Below, piece after piece: positions 1 to 60,056 of a stretch of 63,112 bases of DNA. The stretch covers positions 1 to 63,112 of the IMG/VR virus record IMGVR_UViG_3300043446_002177; one strand, 5' to 3'. Made by a program: the position numbers and the translations under genes. The notes below the pieces were generated by a model. That model was not told the DNA's origin. It ran no database searches and saw nothing but the letters and a program-made list of their open reading frames with translations. This DNA comes from a virus (lineage: Duplodnaviria > Caudoviricetes). Numbering within the stretch: position 1 is the stretch's first letter; each line of letters opens with the position of its first letter.

Positions 1-296
1 CTACCTGCCATTATTTCGTTAAAATACATTTTGGCCAGCCTACGTGCTGTGCCTTTTGAGTTAGGATCGTTTTCACGATCAATCAGCAAACGATCAAGCA
101 CTAGTTCAAATGCTTCCGTTGCTTCGTTAATTAGATGTTCTTTGTCGCTTTCGTGTAGATAATCGCTGATATTATCCCCAGCCCAGAAACGTTTCCCATC
201 TCGTTTCATTTTAAAACGAAGCACATCGCTAAGGTATGCTTCTTTGTAGCCTTTTTCGCCATACATGGCATCTAGTGCTGTTTCGTTATTGGTCAA
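1..296 (-). CDS. folE: GTP cyclohydrolase I (FolE), N-terminal part; runs off the left edge
   Basis: Not in the ORF track. Manual translation from TTG at 296 (GGAG SD upstream) gives MTNNETALDAMYGEKG...LLIDRENDPNSKGTARRLAKMYFNEIMAG, matching the FolE D-x-n-x-x-x-T-x-x-R-x-A-K-M-Y-x-x-E-I motif. Confidence 0.88.
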   Translation of the reverse strand, partial: MTNNETALDAMYGEKGYKEAYLSDVLRFKMKRDGKRFWAGDNISDYLHESDKEHLINEATEAFELVLDRLLIDRENDPNSKGTARRLAKMYFNEIMAG

Positions 297-339
297 TTTA
301 TTCTCCGAGTTTTTGTCGTGGATGACATATTTTATAATC

Positions 340-1140
340 TTATTTAGGTTTTTGCAACCTCAATAGCGTATTTTTCTTAATTGCTGTCTTCAATACGTTC
401 AATTGTACACCTAATTTGCTCGATATTTTAGATAAAGCACTGGTATCTTTAGGAAAACACATTCCTCCAAATCCGTAGTAATTGTCAGGCCCTGGAACTT
501 GCAAATGACTAGATCCAATTCTCTTATCTAACATTAACGATTGAATCATATCTTGCCATTTGTAACCGTGTGCTTTTGCTAGTTCTTCCATTTCATTCAT
601 AAAAACTACTTTAGTAGCTAAGAATGAGTTAATAATATATTTGGTTAGAGCAGCTTCTCCAATTGTAGTGTATCTAACATGTTTAATAGGTTGCACACCT
701 TTTAGTATACGTTCAGCTTCTCTTTGATATGCTAATACAATTCCTCCAATAATTACATTTTCTTGATTGATAAAATCTTTTAATGCATTAGCGGCAGTCA
801 AAAACTCCGGCACGTGAACTAAATTAGGATACACAGTTTGCATTTTTTCATAAAATGCGGGCGGTGCAGTTGTTTTACTGATAATAACATTTTTAAAATC
901 TTTTAAAAGATATAATACTGCATTTAATATACTAGTATCGCATTCACCGTTTTCTTTACTTGGACTTGGTACGCAGACAAATACAGCTTCACAGTCTGCA
1001 AGATCTGCATAAGTTCCTGTACTTTTTTCTGGATCAACATCTATACAAACAACATTGAAGTCGTGATCTGCATAGGCGGTTTTTATAGCATTACCTACAA
1101 ATCCTAATCCTATAATACCAATTTTAGGCATTTCAAACAT
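340..1140 (-). CDS. UDP-glucose/GDP-mannose dehydrogenase family protein (short form)
   Basis: Rossmann GIIGLGFVG, VCVPSP, PEFL, K-Y-x-x-N-S-F-L-A-T-K and GFGGMCFPKD catalytic Cys motif; likely start MFEMPK at 1140. Confidence 0.88.
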   Translation of the reverse strand: MFEMPKIGIIGLGFVGNAIKTAYADHDFNVVCIDVDPEKSTGTYADLADCEAVFVCVPSPSKENGECDTSILNAVLYLLKDFKNVIISKTTAPPAFYEKMQTVYPNLVHVPEFLTAANALKDFINQENVIIGGIVLAYQREAERILKGVQPIKHVRYTTIGEAALTKYIINSFLATKVVFMNEMEELAKAHGYKWQDMIQSLMLDKRIGSSHLQVPGPDNYYGFGGMCFPKDTSALSKISSKLGVQLNVLKTAIKKNTLLRLQKPK

Positions 1141-1337
1141 TAGGTACTGATTCCCTTGTTGTACGGTTGTTGCATTCGTTGTTTGCGGCATTCTTCTTTT
1201 ACTTCTTTAGGTATATCTGGGTGCCATTCAGCCATGCCGCAGTCGTAAAACTTAATACGTTCTTCAGGCATAGGGATAATGGCTAGTAATCCTATCCAAA
1301 ACGCTGTGGCAAGTAACGCACCAATAAAATATTTCAC
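1140..1337 (-). CDS. small membrane protein
   Basis: N-terminal hydrophobic helix; overlaps neighbours at start/stop. Confidence 0.6.
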   Translation of the reverse strand: MKYFIGALLATAFWIGLLAIIPMPEERIKFYDCGMAEWHPDIPKEVKEECRKQRMQQPYNKGIST

Positions 1338-1630
1338 AGTCTCTCGCTTAATAATATTCTACACAAATCTGCGTCTTTTTTATTCTTAAAAGTGAAAGTC
1401 ATATAATCTGGACAAGGTTTATAATAAAACCTATTTCCAGGTAATCCAAATACTTCTAATACTGAAGCACAACTTTCATTCCACCATTGGGATCCTTGGT
1501 TGCGCCAGTTGAGAGTTACAATGTGTTCTTTAGGTAACGGAGATCTAAACCACTCTGGTTTTCTAGTAAGATCAAACGGTTTATGTTTTTTATCTGTCAT
1601 CGTCAAAATCGACCCGTTCGTTATCTTCAA
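1334..1630 (-). CDS. hypothetical phage protein
   Basis: In operon, coupled by ATGA overlap; true start may be MTDKK at about 1600. Confidence 0.55.
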   Translation of the reverse strand: MKITNGSILTMTDKKHKPFDLTRKPEWFRSPLPKEHIVTLNWRNQGSQWWNESCASVLEVFGLPGNRFYYKPCPDYMTFTFKNKKDADLCRILLSERL

Positions 1631-1787
1631 TCCACTGTAGTTTAGTTAAACGTGCAATTTCATCTTTTAGCATAAGTTTACGCTTTTTCATTTCTGAAAT
1701 TTGTTCGTCAGTATAATTACCTTCGGTAATTTGCTTGTCTAATACACGATGACTTTCTTCAAGAGTTTGAATTCTGCTTCTGTACAC
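1590..1787 (-). CDS. small coiled-coil protein (DUF465/YdcH-like)
   Basis: L-E-E-S-H-x-x-L-D-x-x-I ... K-K-R-K-L-x-L-K-D-E-I pattern. Confidence 0.6.
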   Translation of the reverse strand: MYRSRIQTLEESHRVLDKQITEGNYTDEQISEMKKRKLMLKDEIARLTKLQWIEDNERVDFDDDR

Positions 1788-2157
1788 GATAATTTCCTTT
1801 CTCTGGTATTACATGACGCACACCGCCACGTGGATCCTCCATGTCACCTTTTCTTCTTGGAATCATATGAACATGGGAATACATCACTGTTTGTCCTGCA
1901 GCTTCTCCGACATTTTGTCCGATATTAAAAGCGTCCCAACTTTCGTCACGTACTCCAAGTTGTCCGTATTGGTACGCTGCTTTGATGCATTCAAATAGGT
2001 TTGCAAATGTGTCTTCGGTAGGCACAAATAACAAATGCCCTTGGGTAACTGGATATGCATCTTTGAAGACCCAATAATATTCTGATTTGAATTTAATGTT
2101 TTCTTCTTCCCATGGGACAAGTTTTTCATTCATAGCCCTTTCTAGTTCGGTTTTCAT
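1759..2157 (-). CDS. HIT family nucleotide hydrolase
   Basis: DAYPVTQGHLLFVP, FNIGQNVGEAAGQTV, HVHMIPRRKGD. Confidence 0.92.
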   Translation of the reverse strand: MKTELERAMNEKLVPWEEENIKFKSEYYWVFKDAYPVTQGHLLFVPTEDTFANLFECIKAAYQYGQLGVRDESWDAFNIGQNVGEAAGQTVMYSHVHMIPRRKGDMEDPRGGVRHVIPEKGNYRVQKQNSNS

Positions 2158-2166
2158 AAATTACCT

Positions 2167-3246
2167 TCATTTTAAAAAAATATCATTAATTTGCCTATTA
2201 ACACGAATAAATGTTGTGCATTTACTTAATTGCTTTAGACTAGGCGCACCAACATAGGTGCAAGTACTGCGAATACCACCTAGTAAATCTAATACAGTAT
2301 CGTTAACAGACCCTTTAAACGGAATTTCTACTGTACGACCTTCGCTACTACGATAGTTGGCAACACCGCCATGATGTTTTTCCATAGCAGTATCACTGCT
2401 CATTCCGTAGAATTTAACATAATCTTTAGTGTCAACATATTGAGTACCGGTTTCATTACTTAATTCGTTTGAAACAAAACTTTTATGTATAACAGTTCCA
2501 CCACCTTCTATGTGTCCTGCAAGCATACCGCCCAGCATAACAAAATCGGCACCAGCACCAAAGGCTTTAGCAACGTCGCCAGGACAAGTGCAACCACCAT
2601 CAGCGATAATATGTCCGCCAAGGCCATGAGCAGCATCACTACATTCAATAATTGCGGAGAGTTGGGGATATCCACAACCAGTCTGAATCCTTGTAGTACA
2701 TACACTACCAGGACCAATGCCCACTTTAACGATATCAGCTCCACGTAGTATTAACTCCTGTGTCATGTCTGCGGTAACAACATTACCTGCAATAATTGTA
2801 CAATGCGGAAATGTTTCTCTAACTTTTTGAACAAAATCTCCAAATCGTTCTTGATACCCATTAGCTACATCTATGCAGATAAAATGTATCTCTGGGTAAG
2901 CATTGACAATTTGTCGCAACTGGAGAAAATCTTTATCACTGGTACCAGTGCTAACTGCAAAATATTGCCCGCCAAATTTACTTGTTAGATCAAAAAGATC
3001 ATCTTCGGCGTAGCTCTTAACTAGACAGGTAAACATCTGATGTTTATACAATGCTCGAGCCATGTCTATTGTACCTACACCGTCCATGTTTGCAGCCATA
3101 ATTGGAATACCAGTCCATGACTTCTTACTGTGTTTAAATTTATAGGTACGATTTAAATCCACTTCTTTACGGCTAGCTAATGTACTACGCTTAGGACGAA
3201 TTAATACATCCTTAAAGTCAAGTTTGATTTCGTCTTCAATTCTCAT
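2167..3246 (-). CDS. guaC: GMP reductase
   Basis: [63 protein letters not shown]; start MRIE at 3246. Confidence 0.95.
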
Positions 3247-3830
3247 TGTTCCCACCATGCTTCGTAAGGGAATTCGATCCACACATCATTTTCTGCTTTG
3301 TTAACTTCCATAGCAGAAAAGTCCATTTTTACATTACATTTACTAGCTTGGTTATCCACTAACACTGCAAACTTTACATTATTGTTCCAGACATGCTTCC
3401 AATCAGGATCGTTGGGCAAACAGCTACTAGGCCAGTCATTTATAATCCAGTTAAATGTTGCACCTGTATCATTAATGTCATCAACAATAAGAATGTTCTT
3501 AAAATTACTGCCTTCTTCTAACAATGAGCTGGCAGCATCTAAAACTGACCCAACATCGTTTTCGTCTGCTACAAATCTTTCTTGTTTGGGATAACCTAGT
3601 GCATCTTCAGCTATACCACAATCGCTAACACATTCGCCGCCGTCACGTAAACTTACTTGTAACGGTTTCATAGGAATATTAAAGTAGTGACTAATCATGA
3701 CAGCAGGAACAAGGCCGCCACGACTAATACCTACAATATAATCAGGTCTCCAACCGCTATTAGCAATATCTCTACAGAGCTTGCTAATTAATTTTTTTAA
3801 GTCTTGATCTTTAAGTATTAGTTTGTTCAT
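3243..3830 (-). CDS. type I phosphoribosyltransferase (purine PRTase-like)
   Basis: [28 protein letters not shown]-binding motif, C-terminal WIEFPYE. Confidence 0.9.
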
Positions 3831-4191
3831 TATTGCCCTTTAATTCTTCCCACATTCTATACTTTGATAACTCTTTAATATATGCATCGTACATTTTTTT
3901 GAGTTTAGGATATTTCTTTTCCATTATAACATCACGCTCTGGAATCATCAAGACTTTTTCTATTGTAGTTAACCGTTCTTCTAAATCTCGACCATTGTGG
4001 ATAATTTTACCTTTGACTTCTAAACTGGCAGGATCGTTAGTTACAACTACTGACGGACTAAGTTGATATCCACTAGTATTGGTCCATGTTGTTCCGTTAA
4101 TACCTGTAGTGGTTAAAAATGCTCCGCTAGGAATGCCAGTAGGAGAACTAATTTGATATGTTGGTAGATTTACGCCAGTTGAAGTAGTCAT
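3811..4191 (-). CDS. hypothetical phage protein (Thr/Ser-rich N-terminus, KKYPxLK C-terminal motif)
   Basis: In operon; C-terminus resembles that of 4611..5072. Confidence 0.6.
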   Translation of the reverse strand: MTTSTGVNLPTYQISSPTGIPSGAFLTTTGINGTTWTNTSGYQLSPSVVVTNDPASLEVKGKIIHNGRDLEERLTTIEKVLMIPERDVIMEKKYPKLKKMYDAYIKELSKYRMWEELKGNNEQTNT

Positions 4192-4636
4192 TATGTTGAA
4201 CCCATTTATCTTTAACTAAGAATCCCCATTCTCGTTTGTGTGGACCTGGCATAAACAGTGTCCAACATTCAACACCGGGATCTAATTCAATTCTGTGATA
4301 ACTATTAGCACCACAGGTACGGAAACTACCAGCGCCACGCCATTTGGCAATTTCACCTATCTTTTTACCTTCCTCGTTAAATTGAGGAATCCATTCCCAA
4401 TAACCACCTTTAAGTATTAGTGTGGCATAAGGCCAGGGATGATCGTGAACGTCATCTGGATCACTCTTTAAAAATTTGTGTAAGAAAACGTTAAACGGAA
4501 ACCACTTACGATCTGTAAGAAAGATGTAGTACCGTTCTAAATAGGGTTCGCTGTCAAGCCTATCTAAAATAATACGTTTACGCCCGGTGCGTTCTAAAAG
4601 ACTAAAGAATTTATTTTTTAGGAACTGGATTATCAT
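4148..4636 (-). CDS. cupin-fold protein
   Basis: H-K-F-x-x-S-D-x-D-x-x-H-D-H-P-W ... GGYWE ... HRIEL ... WTLF ... WGF metal-binding cupin pattern. Confidence 0.7.
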   Translation of the reverse strand: MIIQFLKNKFFSLLERTGRKRIILDRLDSEPYLERYYIFLTDRKWFPFNVFLHKFLKSDPDDVHDHPWPYATLILKGGYWEWIPQFNEEGKKIGEIAKWRGAGSFRTCGANSYHRIELDPGVECWTLFMPGPHKREWGFLVKDKWVQHNDYFNWRKSTNISN

Positions 4637-5072
4637 AGTCGTCCTTTACCATTTCATAAAACACTTTGAAGTTGTCAAAGGCAATTTTTAAACCTGGATA
4701 TTTTTTACACATATCCTCTACGCGACCTAGTGGCGGCAAACAGTCAACCCATTCTTTAGGAATATTAAACGCTGAGTAATTGTCTATGCCTGTAAGTGTT
4801 ATAGTGTCACTTGTTGATAACGTGCTAATAGTATAAGTGCCTCCGGCTCCGGCATAGGTGGTTCCGGCACTACCAGTAGGACCAAGTGTAATTGTTGGAA
4901 TTGATGTAGCATAGTTATAACTTGATCCTCCAGCTGTAATAGTTATGTCGTCGTTCATGCTGGCACCTGCACCTGCAAGATCAATAGTACATTCTTTTAT
5001 AATATCATCTAAGCTACGACCATTAATTAGTAATGGTTCTAATGAGTCCTTGGGCTGAGAAGAATCGCTCAT
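4611..5072 (-). CDS. hypothetical phage protein (Thr/Gly-rich, KKYPxLK C-terminal motif)
   Basis: In operon; resembles 3811..4191. Confidence 0.6.
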   Translation of the reverse strand: MSDSSQPKDSLEPLLINGRSLDDIIKECTIDLAGAGASMNDDITITAGGSSYNYATSIPTITLGPTGSAGTTYAGAGGTYTISTLSTSDTITLTGIDNYSAFNIPKEWVDCLPPLGRVEDMCKKYPGLKIAFDNFKVFYEMVKDDYDNPVPKK

Positions 5073-6117
5073 GTAAATCCTCCGTTTGTTTTACTAGCAT
5101 AGGAAGTCGTGTGCGATAATTCTCCATATGCTCTATGATTGTTTTAACAAGATGTGGTCTATGTGTGTCATATGCTTCGTAACTTTCTGTCCATTCTGAA
5201 GGATATTTGAAAGTGTCATAATACATTTCTGTATACGATAGACGATTAGGTACCATAGGAATAGCATCAACAATGGCACCTTCGTAACAGCTAATACCTA
5301 GTGTTTCTTGTAAGTTAGCACTAAACACTAGTTTAGCTTCTCCTAACAAGTTATGATATTCATTTTTAGTTAACTGTTGATCCTGACAAACAACAAATTC
5401 ATATTGTGGAAGATGATGTTTAAGATCTCTAAAAATTTCTACTTGTTTTTCTGGAGCGATACGATGTGGAAACAAGATTAAATCTCGTTTAGGCATGCCC
5501 TTGTATGGAATAAGAATATCTTTGAGATATTCCATAGGCCAACCTGTACGAACTATTTTGGGAAATTTGCCCTCAAGAATTTCTTTTAGGTCTTCCTCAA
5601 TCCACGGATTTAACATTTCGTTATTAAGAAGATTTCTAAAAAACATCTCAATATGAAAGTTGGTAGCAAAGTAGTTATAATCAATTGCATGAAAGAATGA
5701 TTTTTCTGCGTGACGTACCCACGGAGCATCTCCAATCAATCGACCTAGAAAGTCTTGAGGGTCATAACTACCAGCATGCCATAGAGCGTGAATCTTGACA
5801 GGAATGCCGAGAAGCTCGCTCATGTATTTTAAGTTTATGATACCAGGATGCCAAGCATCAGTAAACAAAAAATGATCGCCAGGCTTAACTGCTCCGGATG
5901 TAAATAAACGGCCCATTCTTTCAACTTGAGCAGACTTATAGATATTAGTCCCGCCAAAATTGAGAAAGGCACCAGGAGTAGTGGCACTAGGAATATCTTC
6001 AGGACCAGAGATAACTTGAACCTCAAGTCCTGCCCTTTTAAAAATTTTGGGTACATGTTCTTTCCACTGTGCTGTATAACGAGTTTCTACAGCCTCTAAA
6101 TCAACAATATAGATCAT
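5023..6117 (-). CDS. GT-B fold glycosyltransferase
   Basis: FPHRIAPEKQ, FSANLQETLGISCYEG, PNRLSYTEM match the GT-B donor-binding C-terminal domain pattern. Confidence 0.8.
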   Translation of the reverse strand: MIYIVDLEAVETRYTAQWKEHVPKIFKRAGLEVQVISGPEDIPSATTPGAFLNFGGTNIYKSAQVERMGRLFTSGAVKPGDHFLFTDAWHPGIINLKYMSELLGIPVKIHALWHAGSYDPQDFLGRLIGDAPWVRHAEKSFFHAIDYNYFATNFHIEMFFRNLLNNEMLNPWIEEDLKEILEGKFPKIVRTGWPMEYLKDILIPYKGMPKRDLILFPHRIAPEKQVEIFRDLKHHLPQYEFVVCQDQQLTKNEYHNLLGEAKLVFSANLQETLGISCYEGAIVDAIPMVPNRLSYTEMYYDTFKYPSEWTESYEAYDTHRPHLVKTIIEHMENYRTRLPMLVKQTEDLHERFFSAQGLIRTITN

Positions 6118-6353
6118 CGTTGGTAGTTGCGATTATAGTTTCCACTGCGGTTATATTCACCGCGAGGCTTGCGTGGACGAGTACTTTGGTAATATCTGTT
6201 CCAAATGTCACTTTGTCTATTATACAAGTTGGCTTCATTAAACTCGCATAACTCAAAGCGACAAAAATCGCGGAAAGCATCAAGATCATCAAAGATCTTA
6301 ACAATGTCAGGACGAGATTCAAAATAAGCAAAGCCTTTGTAATTAGTAGCCAT
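6114..6353 (-). CDS. hypothetical phage protein
   Basis: Likely start MATNYKG after AAGGA; coupled to the GT gene. Confidence 0.55.
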   Translation of the reverse strand: MATNYKGFAYFESRPDIVKIFDDLDAFRDFCRFELCEFNEANLYNRQSDIWNRYYQSTRPRKPRGEYNRSGNYNRNYQR

Positions 6354-6369
6354 GATAGCTTTTTTCCTT

Positions 6370-6759
6370 TTAATACTTAATAAACGAACCATTTTCTCCG
6401 TCTTCGGAGACCTCAATCCAAACCTCACGGCCAGGATACTTTGTTGAAATAGTTTCAAACAAATCGTCTGAAATCATTTCGCAACTCTTATAGTTTAGCG
6501 TCAATGTGCTTTCGTTGTAAAGTTTTTCGAGCCAACGCTTAAACTGAATAAACTCAATATCACGATCATCGTGGAACACTTCAATATAAACTTTAAAATG
6601 GAAAATGTGACGATGAGGCGTACCTAAAAAACTAACATCGTATTCGTCGCCTGTGGCAAGTTTAGGATCTGTAGCCGCTGCCGGATACATATGAATACCT
6701 TCTTTGCGAAAGGTAACCCAGATCATTTTTTTAGGTCTTACATCTTGTCTAACAATCAT
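6370..6759 (-). CDS. dpdL: QueD-like T-fold protein, DpdL-type (candidate CDG decarboxylase)
   Basis: FLGTPHRHIFHF (LxxxHRHxF), DRDIEF, KSCEM, VSEDGENG; lies in the deazaguanine cluster. Confidence 0.7.
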   Translation of the reverse strand: MIVRQDVRPKKMIWVTFRKEGIHMYPAAATDPKLATGDEYDVSFLGTPHRHIFHFKVYIEVFHDDRDIEFIQFKRWLEKLYNESTLTLNYKSCEMISDDLFETISTKYPGREVWIEVSEDGENGSFIKY

Positions 6760-6959
6760 TTCACTAATCCTTGTGCTAGTGTTGCAATTTCTGCATCTGT
6801 CATAAAAAATTGATAAACTGAGCTAAACTCAACTTCACCATCTTTATCTTTACATTCTTGTACAAATTCAACAGCATTTAAGTCAGAAGGACTAAGGCAC
6901 TTCCAACTTTTTACTTTGAGTCTAAATGCTTGAGAATCCTTAACTACGAATTCTTTCAT
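6756..6959 (-). CDS. hypothetical phage protein
   Basis: ATGA-coupled on both sides. Confidence 0.55.
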   Translation of the reverse strand: MKEFVVKDSQAFRLKVKSWKCLSPSDLNAVEFVQECKDKDGEVEFSSVYQFFMTDAEIATLAQGLVK

Positions 6960-7498
6960 TTGATAACCTCGTCGTTTTTATATTGTGACCAGTCTGTGAA
7001 CTTACTACGATCCATTAGTGTATGTAGACTGTGGGACCATACACCGGGATTAGTTGCCTTAAAATCTTTGTCATCAATTTTAAGCATTGTATTATAATTC
7101 CACAAACGAATGTAAGGAATTGGCACACGAATTTGCGGAATAAAATTATCACGCTCACAAAGACCACTTTCGTTAAATTCTTCAACTTGATTCATAGGAA
7201 TATCAAGTGAGCAAAGATATCCTTTTTCTAAGTAGTAATAAATCATTTCTTCCCATGCATGATGTTCTTCAGGGATAGAAGGATTGTAACTATGATTAGC
7301 ACCAAAGAAAATATGACGAATATGCTTAATTGTGTCTGTGTAAGAGTTTTGATCGTTTAAGATACTGTCAATAGCATCAGTAGGTTGTACGCCTGTAACA
7401 AACAGAGTCTTCATTCCGTAGGCAGGCGTATGCTCTACTTCATTTCCAATAAAGAATATAATGTTGTCTGCCTGACCGGTTGTATAATCACGATTCAT
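6956..7498 (-). CDS. hypothetical phage protein in the modification cluster
   Basis: G-x-E-V-E-H-T-P-A-x-G-x-x-T-L-F-V ... KIDDKDF-x-A-T-N-P-G-V-W; between dpdA-like and dpdL-like genes. Confidence 0.65.
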   Translation of the reverse strand: MNRDYTTGQADNIIFFIGNEVEHTPAYGMKTLFVTGVQPTDAIDSILNDQNSYTDTIKHIRHIFFGANHSYNPSIPEEHHAWEEMIYYYLEKGYLCSLDIPMNQVEEFNESGLCERDNFIPQIRVPIPYIRLWNYNTMLKIDDKDFKATNPGVWSHSLHTLMDRSKFTDWSQYKNDEVIK

Positions 7499-7739
7499 TT
7501 TTGTTTTGCTCGTATTGTTTGAATAAACGGGTCACAGGTTCCATACGTTCCTGAAACACATGTGGACTAGCTTCAGCTGCCTGCTGCATATCCCAATTAC
7601 TAGGATAATGTCTAAGGCATCCGCTTGCACGTTGTCTAATAATTTTGGGAACTCTAGGAGTGACAGTACGGTCACAAAGATCCTTTAACAATTGTTCCGC
7701 CATTTTAACGGCACGATACCGTTCGTCGGGTAGTGTCAT
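7488..7739 (-). CDS. small protein (BPSL0761-like)
   Basis: MTLPDERYRAV ... R-x-R-A-x-x-x-L-R-H-Y-P pattern. Confidence 0.55.
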   Translation of the reverse strand: MTLPDERYRAVKMAEQLLKDLCDRTVTPRVPKIIRQRASGCLRHYPSNWDMQQAAEASPHVFQERMEPVTRLFKQYEQNKNES

Positions 7740-9286
7740 TCTTTTACCTGTAATTCGAGCTGGTCTAATTTGGATTCTTCTTCGTCAGTGAATTCATCAC
7801 TATGTTCGGATTGTACACTATTATCATTAACTTCGTCAAATAAATTGGCAAACATAGTTGAAGCGTTTATAGTCTTTTTACCAGTAGCACCACGGGTACC
7901 AATAATGCTCATCCAAAAACGGCTGTATTCTTCTACCACGGCATCAGCAGTGCCTCTGTCGCTAGTAGCAAAAATTGCTTCAACTACATCCTTAAAGAAT
8001 AGTCTATCAAACTTTTCCTGTACTAACATAGACGGAATACTACCTAAATCATATTGTCGATTGGCTTCTTGAACGGCATTAATGTGACTCCAGACATTAT
8101 GACCCATTTGAATAGCATAGCTAAAACTATCCCAACTGGTTCGACCTTCTCTACCTATTTTATTTAGGTCGCCTGGCGCATATATGCAAATATCTTTCAT
8201 TTGAACTTGGTCGATGAGCGGGCTGGATTCAAAATTTCTGAATATTCCGTCTTGAATGACCGCGTCTTTGAAGAGCCTTGTATCGCTGGCGTATCGCTTG
8301 TCATCTGCGCTAGGAACCATTCGGTAGACCCATTTCGTTCTGTCTTGCGTCTCGGTTTGGATGTAGATCTGGCCATTTGCGGTTGCGAGGAATGGACTCG
8401 CACAATCAAACGATATTGTGAACTGGTCATTGTGATATTTCCTTACGGCACGTTGTATGTCTGTTAATAAACATGCCCATTCTAATTTACTAGTTCCTAA
8501 AAAGTGCATCCAGTCTTGTTTGCCTTTTTCTAGTAGCCCGTCAAACCGTAGTGCTACTAAACGTTTTAATGTTAGGTGTATGTCGCACATGTTTTGTCCG
8601 CCCATAGCCCAGCCGTTAAAGTGTCTGCCTGGATACTGTTTGGGGTCGCAGTATTTTTTCATACGCTGATACCAATCTTCAGCATCTGTATGATTTTCAC
8701 CCTGTAGTACATTTAAGAACTTACAATTACCGTTACGGTTATTAACAAAATAATCGTTATTAATGTAAGTTCCTTGAACTGCTTCTGCATAGGTAGTAAT
8801 ACCTGTGGCCTTTTGTCCCGCTGGGGATCTAGCTACCCAAGCTGGGATATCTAGAATCATGCCATAGTCCATAAGTGTGTCCATCCATGTTAACACTTGG
8901 CTACGTTTCTTTTGTGCTTTAGGACAATTAGGATCTTTCCAATCAGCTTCCCATACACCTTTACCAATCTGGAAACCACCTGAGTCACCTAGAACCCAAC
9001 TAGTAGCACGATTGCGATTACGGAACATGTCCTCGCTTTCGTCTTTTTTATTAAGATCTAAATTAGCATGGCCTGCAGAGTAAAGACACCAGTTGTAGTA
9101 AAATGCACCCTTATCTGGTTCTAGATAATTAAGACTTTCTACACCGTTTGTAAAACTTGCAGGGATACGTGCAGGATCTACATAGTTACCGTAGCGTTGC
9201 TTGCCTATAAACGTAGCATAAAAGCCAGACGTTGCAGGCAAGAACACTGCATAGTCTTTTTGTGTACTAGTTAAATCTCTATTCAT
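7736..9286 (-). CDS. dpdA: TGT-fold transglycosylase, DpdA-like (candidate DNA 7-deazaguanine insertase)
   Basis: DSGGFQ, ILDIP, VLQG, GWAMGG, HFLG and SFD TGT motifs; 516 aa; adjacent to the clamp gene. Confidence 0.78.
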   Translation of the reverse strand: MNRDLTSTQKDYAVFLPATSGFYATFIGKQRYGNYVDPARIPASFTNGVESLNYLEPDKGAFYYNWCLYSAGHANLDLNKKDESEDMFRNRNRATSWVLGDSGGFQIGKGVWEADWKDPNCPKAQKKRSQVLTWMDTLMDYGMILDIPAWVARSPAGQKATGITTYAEAVQGTYINNDYFVNNRNGNCKFLNVLQGENHTDAEDWYQRMKKYCDPKQYPGRHFNGWAMGGQNMCDIHLTLKRLVALRFDGLLEKGKQDWMHFLGTSKLEWACLLTDIQRAVRKYHNDQFTISFDCASPFLATANGQIYIQTETQDRTKWVYRMVPSADDKRYASDTRLFKDAVIQDGIFRNFESSPLIDQVQMKDICIYAPGDLNKIGREGRTSWDSFSYAIQMGHNVWSHINAVQEANRQYDLGSIPSMLVQEKFDRLFFKDVVEAIFATSDRGTADAVVEEYSRFWMSIIGTRGATGKKTINASTMFANLFDEVNDNSVQSEHSDEFTDEEESKLDQLELQVKE

Positions 9287-10017
9287 TACTTGCTTTGTGC
9301 TGGTAAGATGTAATCGTATGTTGCTAGTCCGCTGTCAACAGTGATCATCATAGCACCTGCGTCGGCAATCTTCATAGTCTTATCACCGTCTAAGTTAAGA
9401 ATGCTCATAACTTGTGTAACAGGCCAAGCCCATGACTGCTTTAGTTTTGTTTTAACATCAGACTGGAATACAAAACTACCTGCGTGTGTGCTAGCATCAC
9501 CAAAGCTAAAGACTAAGTTTCCATTGTCTGTCTTGACCTGGAATACATTTTCTTCGCTGTGAGCAGCAGCCTGTAATTTTAGTCTGCTAACAGCAGCCAT
9601 AGTAGGTTCAAACTCTACATCCCATGTAGCACCTTTAAACTTAACAGTCTTAAGTTTTTCGTTAATGATTTCACTGTTCATAAAACGATAGTCATTAACA
9701 AAGTCACCGCCTTCATTTTCAAAGTGTAGGCTTACTGGAATTTCTTTGCCGTTGCGTTCTGCCTTGACTACTTCAATCTTAGCATTTTCTTTGTATTCTG
9801 GATTACGCAAATGTAAACTTAGTTTGTCTAAGTTGGGCATTCCAAATACACCGTCAAATTCATCAACAGGAGTTTTTGTTTTGGCATTGATAATAACTGA
9901 ACGATCTTCAGCCATTGATTCGATTACAGTTTCTTTATCATCGCCTGTAATTTTAACTAGCGGAATAATTCCTAAGCTGTGTGTATGTGTTACGATGTCG
10001 GTTAAGATGTCTTTCAT
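9286..10017 (-). CDS. sliding clamp (T4 gp45/PCNA-like)
   Basis: 243 aa beta-rich protein immediately after polB, C-terminal YDYILPA; clamp loader present at 33.6 kb. Confidence 0.7.
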   Translation of the reverse strand: MKDILTDIVTHTHSLGIIPLVKITGDDKETVIESMAEDRSVIINAKTKTPVDEFDGVFGMPNLDKLSLHLRNPEYKENAKIEVVKAERNGKEIPVSLHFENEGGDFVNDYRFMNSEIINEKLKTVKFKGATWDVEFEPTMAAVSRLKLQAAAHSEENVFQVKTDNGNLVFSFGDASTHAGSFVFQSDVKTKLKQSWAWPVTQVMSILNLDGDKTMKIADAGAMMITVDSGLATYDYILPAQSK

Positions 10018-12781: not shown

Positions 12782-13528
12782 TTACTCACAACTATTTAGT
12801 ATTTGTTTTATAGTTTGTAAATTTTTATAAGTCAAAATGCTATCAGTCATTGAATTAATACTTTCTAAAATGGAATCAGCATTTTCAGCCCAAACGTCTT
12901 TTAACGGACATACATCTACTTTGACAAAAAATAAACTAGACACATTGTCGCCTAAAGGTTCTGTAGTTTGAGTTTCAACTCTAAAATATAAATCATCTAA
13001 CGATTTAGGCACAATGTTTGATTTTCTACTAGGATGATTACTTAGTTCTGGACTAGTTGTAATAGTCCAAACCCATCTGCGAAAACTGCTTTGGCCAGCA
13101 TCGGCCATTGTACTAGTTAACCTGTCACTGGCTTTGACCAACATATCACCGTCTGCAACAGATTTGTGTATGTTAGTTAAGCTCTGTCCAATCCTATCTG
13201 CAGGCACCCAGCTACTAGGAAAACAAAAGCATATAGCACTTAGTAATCCATTGTGCATGATTGCTATGTCTTCTTCTATTTGTAGTGCTAGTTCTACAAT
13301 GTTATCTGTTTTTTCTAATTCGCAATGAATAGATGCTTTTTGAACCAATTGATTTATAGTGCTTTCATGTGTAATAGCCCATAATTGATCGCCTAATAAC
13401 TCAAGTTCTCTTTTCTTTGCATCTAAGTATAAAGGATTAGGGTTACGATTATACATAGCACCTGCCCACCGTTGCATATTGGGCCTTGTGGTATAAGGTG
13501 TCTTAATAAAATCTAATTTATCCTGCAT
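12782..13528 (-). CDS. heme-dependent oxidative N-demethylase alpha-subunit-like protein (DUF3445)
   Basis: LALQIEEDIAIM, AICFCFPSSW-x-P-x-x-x-IG-x-x-L-x-x-IH-x-x-V, RWVWTI, L-Y-F-R-V-E-x-Q-T. Confidence 0.75.
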   Translation of the reverse strand: MQDKLDFIKTPYTTRPNMQRWAGAMYNRNPNPLYLDAKKRELELLGDQLWAITHESTINQLVQKASIHCELEKTDNIVELALQIEEDIAIMHNGLLSAICFCFPSSWVPADRIGQSLTNIHKSVADGDMLVKASDRLTSTMADAGQSSFRRWVWTITTSPELSNHPSRKSNIVPKSLDDLYFRVETQTTEPLGDNVSSLFFVKVDVCPLKDVWAENADSILESINSMTDSILTYKNLQTIKQILNSCE

Positions 13529-13871
13529 GACGTGTTAGAAAGTTAACTCTAATTTTTTCTGGATCAAAATATTCACAAACTACAGATTTAGCAATTTCAA
13601 TATCAAATTCTTTACAACTAAAGACATCAAAGTAAGCAGTTCCGTCTAGTTCCATAAAGTGAGCACTAATGTTACTAGTAGTAATTAATTGTAGTAAGCT
13701 ATAACCTTGTTTAGGATCACCTGGTAGCAGATATTCAATGATGGGCTCACCGTGAGCCTGCATATCTATTCTTACCACAAGATCTTTAATAAAATTATAG
13801 ATATTTTCTTTACTATTGATATTCTTGCAACCGCTACAGTCTAGTAATAAATGATAACCCCAGAAACTCAT
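13518..13871 (-). CDS. speD: pyruvoyl-dependent decarboxylase, SpeD (AdoMetDC) family
   Basis: GYHLLLDCSGC, GYSLLQLITTSNISAHF, AYFDVFSCKEFD. Confidence 0.82.
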   Translation of the reverse strand: MSFWGYHLLLDCSGCKNINSKENIYNFIKDLVVRIDMQAHGEPIIEYLLPGDPKQGYSLLQLITTSNISAHFMELDGTAYFDVFSCKEFDIEIAKSVVCEYFDPEKIRVNFLTRHAG

Positions 13872-19240: not shown

Positions 19241-19440
19241 TATATAGGTTTCTCGCCAGTCAAGTAAGGTTTGCTAAACCATAATTTAAACCATTCTTCT
19301 GTTCCTGGTTTTATATTATGCTTCTTTTGCAATTCGCCTTTTTCGTTTCCTGTTATACTGATATTACTACCGCCGTATGGTTCTAATCCTCGAAATTCTC
19401 TAATGCCAGCTAACTTTCTAATTTGATCTAAATCATCCAT
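19240..19440 (-). CDS. small putative head protein
   Basis: IRKLAGIRE motif; IKPGTEEWFKLWF. Confidence 0.6.
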   Translation of the reverse strand: MDDLDQIRKLAGIREFRGLEPYGGSNISITGNEKGELQKKHNIKPGTEEWFKLWFSKPYLTGEKPI

Positions 19441-19873
19441 TCTTTAAACTGGCTTTTAGCATCCAGCCGTGTTTTTGATGTGCATCGATTCGCCCAGCAA
19501 TAAAATCACTAAACCCGTATTCTTGATTAGCTTCTGATGTTTGAAATACCATCTTAAGTAATCTAATCATTTTTTCGTTATCTTGAGCTAATTCAACTAA
19601 CATTGCATCTTGACTTAATATGTTAGTTTCGTCGTCAACTTGTGTAAGCATACTAAAACGGCTAAAGCTAGCAGGAACATAAGTGCCCATTGCACGAATC
19701 TTTTCAGCAAAGTCGTCTATGCTGCCGTAGACTTCTTCGTAGATTTTACCAAATAGATCGTGATACTCTAAAAAGTCTGGACCAACAATGTTCCAGTGAA
19801 AGTTGTGTGCTTTCAAATAAAAACTAAATGTACTGGCAAATGCCACCTTAGCTGCTTTATGTAGTTCTTCCAT
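19433..19873 (-). CDS. dps: Dps (mini-ferritin)
   Basis: KAHNFHWNIVG-x-x-F-x-x-x-H-x-x-F-x-x-x-Y, DDFAEKIR, HQKHGWML. Confidence 0.93.
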   Translation of the reverse strand: MEELHKAAKVAFASTFSFYLKAHNFHWNIVGPDFLEYHDLFGKIYEEVYGSIDDFAEKIRAMGTYVPASFSRFSMLTQVDDETNILSQDAMLVELAQDNEKMIRLLKMVFQTSEANQEYGFSDFIAGRIDAHQKHGWMLKASLKNG

Positions 19874-19874
19874 T

Positions 19875-20831
19875 TTATGCTAACCTAAATGCTTTTAAAT
19901 TTTTACGTGGGGTACCTTTGTTTACGTCTTTAGTAGTGTTTTGTTTTGTTATGATTCCAACACCTGCTGCTTCTTCATTTGTTGACATAGCTTCTGAACG
20001 TTTTATCAGAGCATCTAAATCTGCCAACATTTGTTTCCATTCCGGACTTTGAAATACTTGTAACGCTCTCTGCATAGTCTTTATGATATCAACTTCACCG
20101 TTTGGTGCTAACACCATTTGTTTTTTAACAGCTTCGACGTCAGGAGCACCCATGCCATTTTCAGCAGCCGCGGCATAAATTCCTTTGACATATTCTTTTG
20201 TTGGCATGGTTCCTAGATCATTTTGTTCACTGACTGGTTCTTTTGTTTTCTTTTTAGCAGCTTTAGCTTTTTCTTTTTCAGCATAAGGATTCAAATATTG
20301 TGCTACTAGATCAAAGAATGCAATGTTACCAATAGGAGTATCTGCATCAACTCCAGCAGCATCACTAAATGCATCTCTGTCTCCTGCTTGAACTGCTGCA
20401 CGTAATGCTGTTGCTGAACTTAATCGAGGGGTAGGCTGTGTATTAATGTTTTTAAAATTATAAAGACCGTGCGGCCCTTCTACGCCATTATATTGATTAA
20501 GAGCTTTTGACACCCATTCTTCGTCAGTATAAACATTTAGTACAACATCGCCATATTTTTTATAAATTTTGCTAGCCATAGTAAGCCAACTTTGCTCTGG
20601 CATAATATGTCCGCGAATCTCCGGATAGATAGCTTCCATGGCTTGTATCTTGACATCGTACGGCAATGGATCTTTTGGACCCTGTGTTGATTGGTTAGTA
20701 CCTACAAACCAAGCGTCGTTTTCGCTGGCCATTTCCCATGCCGCACGATGTCCTTTATGTGGAGGATTAAATCTTCCAAATATAATTCCTACTGTTCTAG
20801 ACTTAGCTTCAAATAGTTCTCGAAGTAGCAT
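19875..20831 (-). CDS. cytidyltransferase-like (HxGH) nucleotidyltransferase with head-protein leader
   Basis: MLLRELFE leader, FGRFNPPHKGH, KDPL, SSATALR. Confidence 0.78.
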   Translation of the reverse strand: MLLRELFEAKSRTVGIIFGRFNPPHKGHRAAWEMASENDAWFVGTNQSTQGPKDPLPYDVKIQAMEAIYPEIRGHIMPEQSWLTMASKIYKKYGDVVLNVYTDEEWVSKALNQYNGVEGPHGLYNFKNINTQPTPRLSSATALRAAVQAGDRDAFSDAAGVDADTPIGNIAFFDLVAQYLNPYAEKEKAKAAKKKTKEPVSEQNDLGTMPTKEYVKGIYAAAAENGMGAPDVEAVKKQMVLAPNGEVDIIKTMQRALQVFQSPEWKQMLADLDALIKRSEAMSTNEEAAGVGIITKQNTTKDVNKGTPRKNLKAFRLA

Positions 20832-21192: not shown

Positions 21193-21193
21193 A

Positions 21194-21640: not shown

Positions 21641-21644
21641 AAAA

Positions 21645-21678: not shown

Positions 21679-21698
21679 TTTGGTTATACCTTTTTAGC

Positions 21699-24567: not shown

Positions 24568-24578
24568 ATTGTTACCTT

Positions 24579-42357: not shown

Positions 42358-42819
42358 ATGAATATACACGCAGATAAAGATTTTTGGATTAACTTAACGT
42401 GGCCTGCGGCTCCGAATAACGCAGATTACAAAGTATTTGAAAGTTTTTGCTATGGTAGAGTTTTATTGCTAGGTAGCACTAGATTGTTATTGCCGTTATG
42501 TACTGAAGCTTGGGACATAGAACCTAAATATGCTAATCCTAAAATAAAGAATAGAGATTGGTTTACATTAGTTGAACACTGGGATACAGTAATCATAGAC
42601 GGCGGGTTAGCGTTTGGAGAACAATTCTGTAAAGATCTGTTAAATGTAGTGCTACCAAACTGTGATAGATTTGTAGCCCGTGCTTTCTTAAATCCTAATT
42701 GGCCCACAAAGTATGCTGTGTACTTTCCACGCAGAGAAGAATTGACTCCTCAACCCGAAGAACACAATATTAACGAAATTTATACATTTTATATATGGAA
42801 CAACGACAAACAATCTTAG
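42358..42819 (+). CDS. hypothetical protein (possibly a degenerate Rossmann/methyltransferase-like fold)
   Basis: VLLLGST ... WDIEP ... WDTVIIDG; co-transcribed with the QueC-like gene. Confidence 0.5.
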   Translation: MNIHADKDFWINLTWPAAPNNADYKVFESFCYGRVLLLGSTRLLLPLCTEAWDIEPKYANPKIKNRDWFTLVEHWDTVIIDGGLAFGEQFCKDLLNVVLPNCDRFVARAFLNPNWPTKYAVYFPRREELTPQPEEHNINEIYTFYIWNNDKQS

Positions 42820-43388
42820 CTATGTACTCGGGTGGGCTAGACAGCCTAGGTATGGTATACAAACTCTTAACCGAAGATCGGTACAAAGATTACGATGTAC
42901 ACATTCATCACGTTCATAACAAGAACGTAGAAAATAGACATGGTGCCGAAGCCATTGCTGTTGATATTGCTACAAAGGAATTAAAGAACTTGGGATTTAA
43001 GTTTGCCTACAGCGAAAGCGAAATAGGTACAGTTCCATTTGGCGATGACTTTATGTTCGATACAGACAGTATGAATTTCTTTGCTGGTTACGTTTGTAGC
43101 GTTAATCCTAACATCGTAAAAGTTGCCATGGGTATGCAGGCTAACGATGCTAATCAACGCCTAGAAGAACGACGTATCCGCGGTAATAAAATACTACAGG
43201 CATTCACTGGTGCTGAAAAAATTTACCCTGTGATGAACATGACTAAACGTGAGATATACGATATGCTACCAGAGTCATTGCGTAATATGTTTTGGAGTTG
43301 TAGACGTCCTGTGTACAGTGAAAAAAATATCGCACCTTGTGGAAAGTGCGATACTTGTATTACACTACGAGAGCAGGGTATTCGTTAA
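42795..43388 (+). CDS. QueC-like PP-loop ATPase
   Basis: MYSGGLDS PP-loop and C-terminal SC...PCGKCDTC Zn site; canonical QueC VPxRN and YPDC motifs not seen. Confidence 0.7.
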   Translation: MEQRQTILAMYSGGLDSLGMVYKLLTEDRYKDYDVHIHHVHNKNVENRHGAEAIAVDIATKELKNLGFKFAYSESEIGTVPFGDDFMFDTDSMNFFAGYVCSVNPNIVKVAMGMQANDANQRLEERRIRGNKILQAFTGAEKIYPVMNMTKREIYDMLPESLRNMFWSCRRPVYSEKNIAPCGKCDTCITLREQGIR

Positions 43389-58814: not shown

Positions 58815-59510
58815 TTAACGCCAGTTTTGAACAATGATAGGATCTTCTACTCTACTAGGTTTTGGATCACCGTGGAATACTAATATTGATGTTTTTGGAT
58901 TTATTTCTGGATTAGCTCTATCTTTAAATATTCTTTCATGGCCTAAACGAACTACATCGTTTCGATCACGAACTTCCCATTTATAACTCATGATAATTTC
59001 ATAAGGCCAGTAGGCAAAGTTTTCGGTTATCTGTTCGTAGATCCAATCTTGGTCACCATGATAACGTCCAGTTTGTGCTAGATTTTCTCTAAGATTATTC
59101 CAAACATATTGAAATTGTCCTTTTTGAAATCTAAACACACTGCTGTTAAACTTATTCCAGTTTTCTACGCTGGATCGATTAAAGTCTTTAATGATACAAA
59201 ACTTATTAGGCTCATAGTCCCATAATAGATCAAAGTTGCGAATAATAACTATGTCCAAATCCATAAACAGTATAGTACCATCTAAAGGTAATTCGTTGCT
59301 AAACACCCAAGGTTTAAACCACCAACCTTGTAAGTGATAATTTGGTATAGGTATAATTGTAATAGCAGGATCTAATCCTGCAGGATCTTCCGTTATACAG
59401 GCAAAACCAAAAGGAACTAGACTGTTCCTTTTGGTCATGTTATACAGTTTGTTGACATAGTCAGAGCTGTACTTTGGCCCGTGTTTAAGACAAACAATCC
59501 AACGATTCAT
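58815..59510 (-). CDS. GT-A fold glycosyltransferase
   Basis: CLKHGPKY..DYVNKL, GWW-x-K, FMDLD (DxD), NSSV, GDQDWI, VFHG-x-PKP. Confidence 0.8.
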   Translation of the reverse strand: MNRWIVCLKHGPKYSSDYVNKLYNMTKRNSLVPFGFACITEDPAGLDPAITIIPIPNYHLQGWWFKPWVFSNELPLDGTILFMDLDIVIIRNFDLLWDYEPNKFCIIKDFNRSSVENWNKFNSSVFRFQKGQFQYVWNNLRENLAQTGRYHGDQDWIYEQITENFAYWPYEIIMSYKWEVRDRNDVVRLGHERIFKDRANPEINPKTSILVFHGDPKPSRVEDPIIVQNWR

Positions 59511-60016
59511 TATGCAAACAGATCTTCATTCCATTCACGATGGCCTTCACGGAAAGCCATGTTGCTTTGTGTTTCTCTAACTTCAACGCGGTAGCACCAT
59601 AACCGAGCTGCCTCGCCTGGTCCCCACATTTCTGGAATATATACGCCGTTTACGTATTTGTACAGCATATCGCTAAGGCCTTCGCATCCTAGTTTAGGTA
59701 ACACTACAATCTTAGCCATATTTTTTTCTTGTAACAACTTAAATGTAGCCATTTCTGGATCATCAGCTGCTACAATAAGTGTGTGGTCAAATTGATCTTC
59801 TAAAACTTTTTTGAGTTCTTTTAGTCCACCATAGTCAGCTGCCCAGTTGCGAACATCTAAATCATTAGTACCAAAATAAAACTTCATTGAGAAACTGTAA
59901 CCATGAATTAGATTACAGTGACTGTCAGCTCGCCATTGCCTATAAGCGCAGGGAAAAGCGTCGTGATATTCTTTTGTTGATGTGTACTTGTAAAGTACGG
60001 GTTGTAGATTTGCCAT
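59510..60016 (-). CDS. queD: 6-carboxytetrahydropterin synthase (QueD/PTPS family)
   Basis: SHCNLIHGY, DYGGLK, FDHT, GCE, VEVRET; start MANLQ at 60016 with AAGGAG. Confidence 0.85.
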   Translation of the reverse strand: MANLQPVLYKYTSTKEYHDAFPCAYRQWRADSHCNLIHGYSFSMKFYFGTNDLDVRNWAADYGGLKELKKVLEDQFDHTLIVAADDPEMATFKLLQEKNMAKIVVLPKLGCEGLSDMLYKYVNGVYIPEMWGPGEAARLWCYRVEVRETQSNMAFREGHREWNEDLFA

Positions 60017-60056
60017 CTCTAGTCTCCTTGTAAAAAGTAGCAAGTTTGATGACATG

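Follow-up and report, generated by a model that had tools for sequence, protein, structure and literature searches.

We have identified a deazaguanine DNA-modification gene cluster, carried by IMG/VR record IMGVR_UViG_3300043446_002177, in which a DpdA3-family DNA transglycosylase and a GT4-type glycosyltransferase (GT) lie in one run of genes. The window analysed here is that whole record (63,112 nt), for which a CheckV completeness of 18% implies a genome of ~350 kb; the genomes of close relatives measure 326-353 kb, and one of them has direct terminal repeats. The run is most probably the DNA-hypermodification module of this ~350-kb uncultured jumbo phage. Its deazaguanine part is of the known QueC-less DpdA/DpdL type, and the GT is the new element. 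Homology makes both the base-exchange step and the overall deazaguanine class of the module highly probable. More tentatively, and with rather less than even confidence, we propose that the DpdA-GT pair would make the first glycosylated purine in DNA, a hexosyl- or N-acetylhexosaminyl-7-deazaguanine that is N2- or C-linked, and that in alphaproteobacteria the pair may serve as self-marking on mobile islands.

Between 3 and 12716 every gene is encoded on the minus strand, and 3..9286 forms a single head-to-tail run in which adjacent open reading frames (ORFs) overlap by 1-52 nt or sit 9-43 nt apart. The GC content across the region is 36-40%. Upstream of the cluster are the gene for a 243-amino-acid (aa) protein (phrog_12062) and then that for a family-B DNA polymerase. 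An earlier, sequence-only reading of this DNA had listed the genes of the cluster; the ORF list and searches of Pfam, PHROG and NCBIfam confirmed every gene named at its position, and added a 79-aa gene just upstream of the GT (6114-6353) that had been overlooked. For comparison, a clade sample of 80 close IMG/VR relatives (GT 71-83% identical) was used, in which 63 loci hold both DpdA and the GT and 56 span the GT to QueE. The constant set in this clade is DpdA, a protein designated X180, DpdL, the 79-aa protein, the GT, FolE and QueE. The corresponding features of the window, together with QueD, are as follows.

7736..9286, minus strand: DpdA3-family DNA transglycosylase, 516 aa, with a transglycosylase fold and homology to phage PA5oct, predicted to swap guanine for a 7-deazaguanine
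6956..7498, minus strand: X180, conserved core protein of no known family, 180 aa, in 61 of the 63 related loci with DpdA and GT
6370..6759, minus strand: DpdL, a QueD-like T-fold paralogue, 129 aa, a proposed decarboxylase of 7-carboxy-7-deazaguanine (CDG)
6114..6353, minus strand: small basic core protein, 79 aa from an internal ATG, isoelectric point (pI) 9.0, in 62 of the 63 loci
5023..6117, minus strand: GT4-type retaining GT-B glycosyltransferase, 364 aa, assigned from its fold and EX7E motif
3..296, minus strand: FolE (GTP cyclohydrolase I), N-terminal 98 residues, cut by the window edge
59510..60055, minus strand: QueD, a 6-carboxytetrahydropterin synthase of the 6-pyruvoyl-tetrahydropterin synthase (PTPS) family, 50 kb from the cluster

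The AlphaFold2 model of the 516-aa protein has a mean predicted local distance difference test score (pLDDT) of 90.8. When it was compared with the PDB using Foldseek, the best 50 rows were all tRNA-guanine transglycosylases (TGTs), with E from 4.5e-7, probability 1.00 and template modelling (TM) scores by target of 0.47-0.55. Sequence searches of Pfam, PHROG, NCBIfam and the PDB gave no match, a 42-sequence DpdA profile retrieved nothing from the PDB, and its 42 members retrieved nothing meaningful from Pfam; the link to TGTs therefore comes from the fold search. The protein is also a full-length homologue of PA5oct QCG76197.1 (33% identity over 99% of the length, E 1e-81), which is entered as DpdA3 in Data S1 of the NAR 2023 paper of Cui, Hutinet et al. 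(PMC10516641). Both results bear out its earlier description as a dpdA-like TGT. The family is large, with 991 clusters at 50% identity (E <= 0.001); at 90% identity, DpdA matches at least 7,971 protein clusters and the GT at least 8,000. DpdA also has a match in Vibrio phage 2.275.O. Invariant in the 42-sequence alignment are D101, S102, G104, D146, H261, G264 and D294, among which we take D101/S102/G104, D146 and D294 to be the counterparts of the TGT catalytic residues (a DSGGFQ-type motif and a later Asp). The alignment contains no invariant Cys, so the zinc site of TGTs seems to be absent from the DpdA family. Base exchange by DpdA is predicted to take place on DNA; indirect evidence for this comes from PA5oct, whose DNA resists five restriction enzymes with G-containing sites, from which its authors infer a modified G.

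The 129-aa protein contains LGTPHRHIF, an instance of the signature LxxxHRHxF that, in place of CxxxHGH, marks DpdL among QueD-like proteins (PMC10516641). It is 32% identical to the DpdL of phage phiST (E 2e-15) and 56-67% identical to those of PA5oct, ACP17 and Phosso, and it matches phrog_17812 (E 4.3e-34); a nine-sequence DpdL comparison has 19 invariant columns. The motif and the phiST homology uphold the DpdL-like T-fold assignment made earlier. Decarboxylation of CDG by DpdL is a proposal from the literature, and expression of ACP17 dpdL and dpdA in E. coli gave no deoxy-7-deazaguanosine (dDG), for which the authors suggested that other enzymes may be needed (PMC10516641). Two loci (L097:5797-6591 and L098:5746-6606) have DpdL-matching ORFs of 264-286 aa, about twice the usual length, which may be a domain fusion or an over-long ORF call.

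In the window, DpdL is accompanied by DpdA, FolE, QueD and a divergent QueC-like gene, while QueE is present in relatives only. The FolE fragment is 83% identical to the N-terminus of the 247-aa FolE of relative L022 (PF01227, E 4e-40), and QueD matches PF01242 (E 2.5e-14) and, under the cut-off, TIGR03367 (E 8.1e-8). As had been said of the window, no QueE was found in it by search, including any Radical_SAM match. In all five related records the module ends with QueE, which lies beyond the corresponding left edge at ~5.3 kb downstream of the GT, so in this phage it should lie just past the left edge of the window. The TGT fold, the DpdA3 homology, the DpdL motif and the presence of FolE and QueD agree with the sequence-only reading of the cluster as a DpdA-type deazaguanine DNA-modification set.

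The GT was modelled with a pLDDT of 89.5. Its best Foldseek matches are BshA, MshA, glycogen synthase and PimB' (BshA 3mbo, E 4.3e-10, TM 0.65). In VIA, neighbours align with Z 21-25 over 286-321 residues, BshA 3mbo at Z 24.6 with a root-mean-square deviation of 2.7 over 299 residues, and sucrose-phosphate synthase and PglA are further structural neighbours. The motif E271-x7-E279 is invariant in 22 sequences of the family, and EX7E is a marker of GT4 enzymes. Six of these 22 members match PF00534 (Glycos_transf_1; best 7.2e-15) and two weakly match PF13439, while the window GT itself has no Glycos_transf_1 or Glyco_transf_4 match at E up to 10. Identification of this protein as a GT-B glycosyltransferase, already made from the letters, is thus supported by a confident model, GT4-type neighbours and the invariant EX7E. 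A search of the window for the QTMAN_N domain (PF12038) gave nothing at E up to 1, and its sole match in five phage genomes with GT homologues (E 0.026, in BCSR5) lies away from the GT. Charge was considered as a hint of DNA binding; six GTs have a pI of 5.4-6.0, but the DpdAs are acidic too, which makes it uninformative. Prediction of a DpdA-GT complex scored 0.00 in two runs, a result that gives no verdict and is evidence neither way. A pyrimidine as the target of the GT is unlikely, as a ThyA-type hydroxymethylase or thymidylate synthase occurs in one of five related genomes and in none of the four near-complete ones.

A lack of co-occurrence between the GT and dpdA had been named beforehand as one observation that would refute the idea of a glycosylated base, and this refutation clearly failed: linkage was found in cultured phages, in 55 of 80 DpdL loci and in 10 of 10 bacterial loci. 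In the phage collection, full-length GT homologues (18 records) occur in PA5oct-like phages, Phosso, ACP17, BCSR5, BUDD, X1 and BUCT-ZZ01, and, the context of X1 aside, the GT is adjacent to or near DpdA/DpdL in every cultured-phage lineage that has one. A gap of 24 nt separates the DpdA match from the GT match in 11 of 11 PA5oct-like records. Gene orders vary between lineages (with "?" for a gene not named here): DpdA3-GT-DpdL-small protein-?-PRTase-QueE in PA5oct, where PRTase is a phosphoribosyltransferase; QueD-FolE-X180-DpdA2-GT-DpdL-QueE in ACP17; FolE-PP-loop-?-?-GT-DpdA2-DpdL-QueE in BUDD; a similar GT-DpdA2 arrangement in BCSR5, with DpdL, QueD, QueE and FolE close by; DpdL-GT-?-FolE...QueE in Phosso, with DpdA3 172 kb away; and QueE-PRTase-?-QueD-FolE-(second GT-like gene)-DpdA2-DpdL-GT in cyanophage BUCT-ZZ01. 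The preceding gene runs into the start of the GT in ACP17, PA5oct and Phosso as well as in the window, where this gene is that of the 79-aa protein and the overlap is 4 nt. In BUDD-like IMG/VR loci DpdL adjoins the GT in four of four, and three of these also contain DpdA2.

The second GT-like gene of BUCT-ZZ01 (L100:5001-6344) encodes 447 aa with a weak PglJ match (E 7e-4) directly upstream of DpdA2, and hints at more than one sugar. A PP-loop gene (PAPS-reductase/CysD-like) adjoins the GT in BUDD- and BCSR5-type clusters, and an ATP-dependent carboxylate-activating step may be part of some versions of the pathway.

For sampling in the reverse direction, a DpdL profile with phiST at its head retrieved the 80 IMG/VR loci. 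Besides the loci with a GT, 17 lacked it with DpdL less than 5 kb from an end. Loci without a GT resemble phiST in that DpdL is followed by a short DpdA-like gene. A DpdL tree built by a quick method, many of whose branches are long, has rows with and without a linked GT mixed together. Single-query scans of IMG/VR returned no matches for the PA5oct GT, and ACP17 only for the ACP17 GT. Species-representative genomes contributed nine phage-like contigs from metagenome-assembled genomes, seven of which carry the GT and DpdL; the other two are short (4.6 and 2.0 kb).

The same genomes held alphaproteobacterial chromosomal loci (hosts Pelagibacterium, Devosia, Ochrobactrum, Azospirillum, Aurantimonas, a Roseobacter and others), and in all ten the GT lies beside a DpdA3-like gene. 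DpdL is present in two and QueE in one, and eight have the pair without DpdL, FolE or QueE nearby. Because these pairs mostly lack DpdL, the GT is tied to the transglycosylase. The bacterial pair (L194-L203) is found on islands that also contain resolvases, an integrase, a YhhQ-like (Vut_1) transporter and, at one locus, GmrSD, a setting which suggests that the GT and DpdA3-like pair is used by bacteria on their own DNA.

Among the 63 related loci, DpdL is missing from just one (62 of 63), and FolE is present in 50 of the 56 loci that reach QueE. X180 has homologues in PA5oct-like phages (~43% identity) and in ACP17; it had no family or PDB match, and its best score in a protein atlas was 0.80, to an entry with no named family and no structure. 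Co-occurrence of X180 with dpdA, raised as a question in the sequence-only reading, is evident from its count in the clade and from ACP17, where X180 adjoins DpdA2. The remaining genes of the run, and the QueC-like gene outside it, are more variable.

7488..7739, minus strand: BPSL0761-family protein, 83 aa, variable accessory (NF041728, E 5.2e-16, 58.4 bits against a cut-off of 35), in 28 of the 63 loci
6756..6959, minus strand: small ORF, 67 aa, frequent accessory, in 39 of the 63 loci; family searches gave nothing significant
4611..5072, minus strand: accessory ORF, 153 aa, its C-terminal part similar to PA5oct EST35_0319 (phmmer E 1.8e-4), in 23 of the 56 loci
4148..4636, minus strand: cupin-like accessory protein (phrog_4786 "cysteine dioxygenase", E 1.8e-37), in 23 of the 56 loci
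3811..4191, minus strand: accessory ORF, 126 aa, related to PA5oct EST35_0319 (phmmer E 1.2e-6), in 27 of the 56 loci
3243..3830, minus strand: 6-oxopurine-type PRTase (PF00156, E 6.7e-12; weak xanthine/HGPRT NCBIfam matches), in 44 of the 56 loci
2167..3282, minus strand: GMP reductase, rare accessory (NF003470, 545.8 bits against a cut-off of 397), in 5 of the 56 loci
1759..2157, minus strand: HIT-family nucleotide hydrolase/transferase, frequent accessory (PF01230, E 7.2e-9), in 36 of the 56 loci
1140..1787, minus strand: three small conserved ORFs of 65, 98 and 65 aa
340..1191, minus strand: truncated UDP-glucose/GDP-mannose-dehydrogenase-like accessory protein, 283 aa, in 22 of the 56 loci
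42795..43388, plus strand: divergent QueC-like PP-loop ATPase, accessory

The labels PRTase, GMP reductase and HIT given previously agree with the family matches listed, and GMP reductase also exceeds the TIGR01305 cut-off (527 against 492). PRTase homologues occur in the clusters or genomes of PA5oct, phiST, immuto_2-6A and BUCT-ZZ01. Of the small ORFs at 1140..1787, the 98-aa one is found in 40 of the 56 loci and that at 1140-1337 in 33. In 13 of the 56 related loci (e.g. L022:12613-13032) the FolE and PRTase genes of the module have between them an HhH-GPD superfamily DNA-glycosylase-like gene (PF00730, E 1e-7), which could be a helper or guard of base exchange.

The accessory set of this window is rich, with GMP reductase, the dehydrogenase-like gene, the cupin and the QueC-like gene, and the last three are non-core. 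The dehydrogenase-like protein matches PF03721 (E 1.3e-18) and PF00984 (E 2.7e-21), aligns to residues 10-301 of the 446-aa 4a7p and keeps the catalytic Cys (GGMCFPKD against GGSCFPKD). By Pfam and by alignment it has no C-terminal UDP-binding domain, and it scores 160.7 against a TIGR03026 cut-off of 189.8. The likeness to UDP-glucose dehydrogenase seen earlier therefore extends to the NAD-binding and central domains and the catalytic Cys of what is a truncated protein below the family cut-off; in some related loci the gene lies between PolB and the next gene. Its role in making a uronic-acid donor, also suggested from the letters, found no support given the missing domain, and uronic-acid supply was rejected as a core feature given the truncation and the variable presence of the gene. 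For the cupin, the name comes from phrog_4786, as Pfam and the PDB gave no match. Its frequency speaks against the part in the chemistry once assigned to it, and a route of hydroxylation followed by glycosylation through the cupin found no support as a core step. Owing to this variable presence across related loci, the GT, uronic-acid supply and the cupin do not form a unit.

The QueC-like protein has the motifs SGGLDS and CGKCDTC (PP-loop and CxxCxxC), so the gene noticed earlier is present as a PP-loop ATPase. As a QueC it falls far under the cut-off (TIGR00364, 18.9 bits against 150.3; PF06508, 27.8 bits; C-terminal 46-50 residues only), and it occurs in one of five related records and neither of the two near-complete ones; it is probably not a member of the core pathway. 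It is one of two plus-strand genes (42358-43388) between minus-strand tail-fibre-like genes.

The mechanism we favour would run as follows. By homology, FolE, QueD and QueE would turn GTP into CDG, which DpdL, as proposed in the literature, would convert to 7-deazaguanine. The DpdA3-family transglycosylase is then predicted to exchange guanine in phage DNA for this deazaguanine, and the GT may move a hexose or N-acetylhexosamine from a host UDP-sugar onto it, most likely after insertion into DNA or, alternatively, on the free base beforehand. A DNA-level or DpdA-coupled GT step is favoured because the bacterial GT pairs with the transglycosylase alone. The exocyclic N2 amine would be the best-precedented attachment point, since HuiG of huimycin synthesis transfers N-acetylglucosamine (GlcNAc) from UDP-GlcNAc onto a nitrogen of 2-amino-6-methoxy-7-cyano-7-deazapurine; a C-glycoside on the pyrrole ring is an alternative. 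The PRTase most likely salvages guanine excised by DpdA (guanine to GMP to GTP to FolE), with GMP reductase and HIT as possible optional add-ons to the nucleotide pool. The product, a purine bearing a sugar, would protect the DNA against restriction enzymes as well as against host DNA glycosylases specific for deazaguanine. Selective pressure of this kind is on record: a vibriophage whose G is fully replaced by dDG is attacked by many host DNA glycosylases, and PA5oct is a target of END nucleases. To our knowledge, the described 7-deazaguanine DNA bases (dPreQ0, dPreQ1, dG+, dADG, dDG, dCDG, and methyl- and formyl-dPreQ1) are all sugar-free, and sugar-decorated DNA bases are known for pyrimidines only. 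A literature search, with most subscription journals outside it, returned no glycosylated deazaguanine in DNA and no discussion of this GT, and neither "glycosyl" nor "phosphoribosyl" occurs in the main text of PMC10516641.

Addition of a sugar to the deazaguanine by the GT has, in our judgement, close to an even chance, and the favoured explanation taken as a whole falls barely short of one. Several observations weigh against it. 7-Deazaguanine offers no hydroxyl as a sugar acceptor. The nearest neighbours of the GT (BshA, MshA and sucrose-phosphate synthase) act on small molecules and not on DNA, and neither T4 alpha- nor beta-glucosyltransferase was among the best 50 rows of Foldseek or VIA. 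DpdL systems function without a GT, as phiST (DpdA3, DpdL and no QueC) makes dDG at 302,000 per 10^6 nt, with all G replaced (PMC10516641, Table 1), yet gave no match to the GT, or to X180, by tblastn at 1e-5. Eight of the 80 DpdL loci lack the GT despite at least 5 kb on both sides, including one complete relative that keeps its GT 29 kb away. In PhiXhv-12-like phages, distant relatives of the GT (25% identity, 66% coverage) adjoin GlmS and a deacetylase, and the stretch viewed contains no deazaguanine genes. Using hhalign, the 42-sequence profile matched phiST DpdA3 (CGPG_00065) weakly (probability 55%, E 1.2e-4, 82 columns); the probability for ACP17 DpdA2 was 95.9%. Finally, all locus samples are the best-scoring loci of each search (best 80) and not random draws.

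The alternative that survives best, which we regard as unlikely, is plain dDG in the DNA as in phiST, with the GT acting on a small molecule upstream of or beside the pathway. The GT might supply DpdL/DpdA with CDG or 7-deazaguanine in the form of a transient glycosyl intermediate or carrier, or it might glycosylate a pterin by-product of FolE and PTPS-like enzymes. Its closeness to BshA and MshA fits such a role, UDP-glucose:tetrahydrobiopterin glucosyltransferases (5zes and 9v0l, Z 21.1) are also listed among its neighbours, and HuiG acts on a free base; moreover, the failed ACP17 expression involved dpdL and dpdA, and the GT sits between those two genes. However, all structural neighbours fall in a narrow Z band (~21-25) in which nothing sets the pterin enzymes apart, phiST can make dDG while lacking the GT, and the eight of ten bacterial loci that pair the GT with a DpdA3-like gene alone point to an enzyme acting on DNA and not to base synthesis.

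An improbable second alternative regards the PRTase, GMP reductase and HIT protein as a pre-replicative route of the tubercidin/toyocamycin type, in which ribosylation with phosphoribosyl pyrophosphate (PRPP), possible deamination to a 7-deaza-IMP analogue and entry through the polymerase would leave the GT as a side issue. According to PMC6112128, TubE joins CDG to PRPP and TubD, a GMP-reductase homologue, carries out a reductive deamination. In toyocamycin and tubercidin clusters PF00156 is paired with PF00478. A PRTase also lies within the Que sets of many DpdL loci (QueE-QueD-PRT-FolE-DpdL), as well as in phiST, PA5oct, immuto_2-6A and BUCT-ZZ01, and full replacement of G in DpdA3 phages would be easy before replication. 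Plain salvage accounts for the PRTase equally well, though, and GMP reductase is found in only 5 of the 56 related loci. Adenylosuccinate synthetase was found in none of five related genomes by a search whose control matched 14 of 14 reference genomes, while the transglycosylase is always present and the published view is one of post-replicative insertion (PMC10516641). That the GT is unrelated to nucleic acids (host envelope, virion or protein glycosylation) and lies in the cluster by accident is very improbable, since it adjoins DpdA and/or DpdL in seven or more cultured-phage lineages, which between them have two DpdA subfamilies and varied gene orders, and in bacterial islands, and the complete relative with the GT out of the cluster still keeps it in the genome, even though GT4 enzymes mostly serve envelopes or metabolites, the JGI label on some homologues is "glycosyltransferase involved in cell wall biosynthesis", and the distant relatives in PhiXhv-12-like phages lie beside amino-sugar genes.

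If our favoured explanation, a sugar placed on deazaguanine, is true, natural DNA bases would gain a new class. Its range would be wide, taking in uncultured jumbo phages, which are abundant, and cultured phages that infect Pseudomonas, Acidovorax, Xanthomonas, Burkholderia, Sinorhizobium and Synechococcus. The base would represent a further round in the contest of phages with modification-dependent nucleases and with host glycosylases specific for deazaguanine, and it would explain why no dDG came of expressing ACP17 dpdA and dpdL in E. coli. The question is directly testable, as the triad of DpdA, DpdL and GT is present in six or more cultured phages.

Sequence near-identical to window positions 1-9300 (0.57-0.96 of sampled words) was present in seven public runs from six studies; four of the runs are labelled as freshwater metagenomes and the rest as aquatic, food production and estuary. 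Elsewhere in the window, all on the minus strand, 12782-13871 holds a haem-dependent oxidative N-demethylase alpha-subunit-like gene (PF11927, E 5e-25) beside S-adenosylmethionine decarboxylase (PF02675), a combination that is unusual in phages. Genes for chaperone and stress functions occupy 19433-25442 and 35453-35797 (ferritin-like protein, ClpB-like double AAA+ ATPase of 751 aa, DnaJ and GroES-like Cpn10). Auxiliary metabolic genes are found at 41627-42331 (fatty-acid desaturase) and 56191-58776 (IscA-like Fe-S assembly protein, Fe/Mn superoxide dismutase and UvdE UV endonuclease). A 2,865-aa ORF with E1_FCCH-like repeats (47591-56188) is flanked by Mtd_N (major tropism determinant N-terminal) proteins at 39992-40999 and 43385-47197, and together these are probably giant tail-fibre or receptor-binding proteins. 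The 166-aa product of a fragment-like gene (36051-36551) has a match to PF07733, the NTPase domain of DNA polymerase III alpha, and a "DnaE-like" gene of 191 aa near DpdA3 in Phosso is similar.

Among known systems, phiST resembles the module in having FolE, QueD and QueE without a canonical QueC, the DpdL motif and a TGT-like DpdA, with a PRTase elsewhere in its genome; it differs in that its DpdA3 has 259 aa and is only weakly similar to the 516-aa DpdA of the window. PA5oct, a Pseudomonas jumbo phage (Wroclawvirus), has DpdA3, GT, DpdL, the small protein, PRTase and QueE in one run, with identities to the window of 33% for DpdA3, 42% for the GT, 56% for DpdL and 43% for X180. Its X180, however, is 28 kb away, its DpdL has HFH where the window has HRH, and the PA5oct stretch viewed contains no cupin, GMP reductase, HIT or dehydrogenase-like gene.

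The bacterial dpd system consists of DpdA/DpdB/DpdC and places dPreQ0 and dADG in host DNA. Like the alphaproteobacterial pair, it has a DpdA-family gene on bacterial genomic islands, but the pair has a different DpdA subfamily and a GT partner, and no DpdB or DpdC was recognised in the annotated stretches. The T4 alpha- and beta-glucosyltransferases have the GT-B fold and glucosylate 5-hydroxymethylcytosine in DNA. They share the proposed logic, in which a phage GT-B enzyme would transfer from a UDP-sugar onto a non-canonical base, while the base differs, 7-deazaguanine has no hydroxymethyl acceptor, and the GT here is GT4-like with EX7E. Queuosine in animal tRNA is mannosylated or galactosylated by QTMAN/QTGAL, which add a sugar to a 7-deazaguanine derivative already within a nucleic acid, as described in PMC12518689; the sugar there is placed on cyclopentene hydroxyls, which are missing from dDG. 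HuiG belongs to an actinomycete secondary-metabolite pathway that has no DpdA, and its acceptor is free O6-methyl-preQ0; it is described as a GT4-type enzyme acting on a 7-deazaguanine-derived ring, encoded, like the GT of the window, beside genes of the FolE, QueD and QueE pathway.

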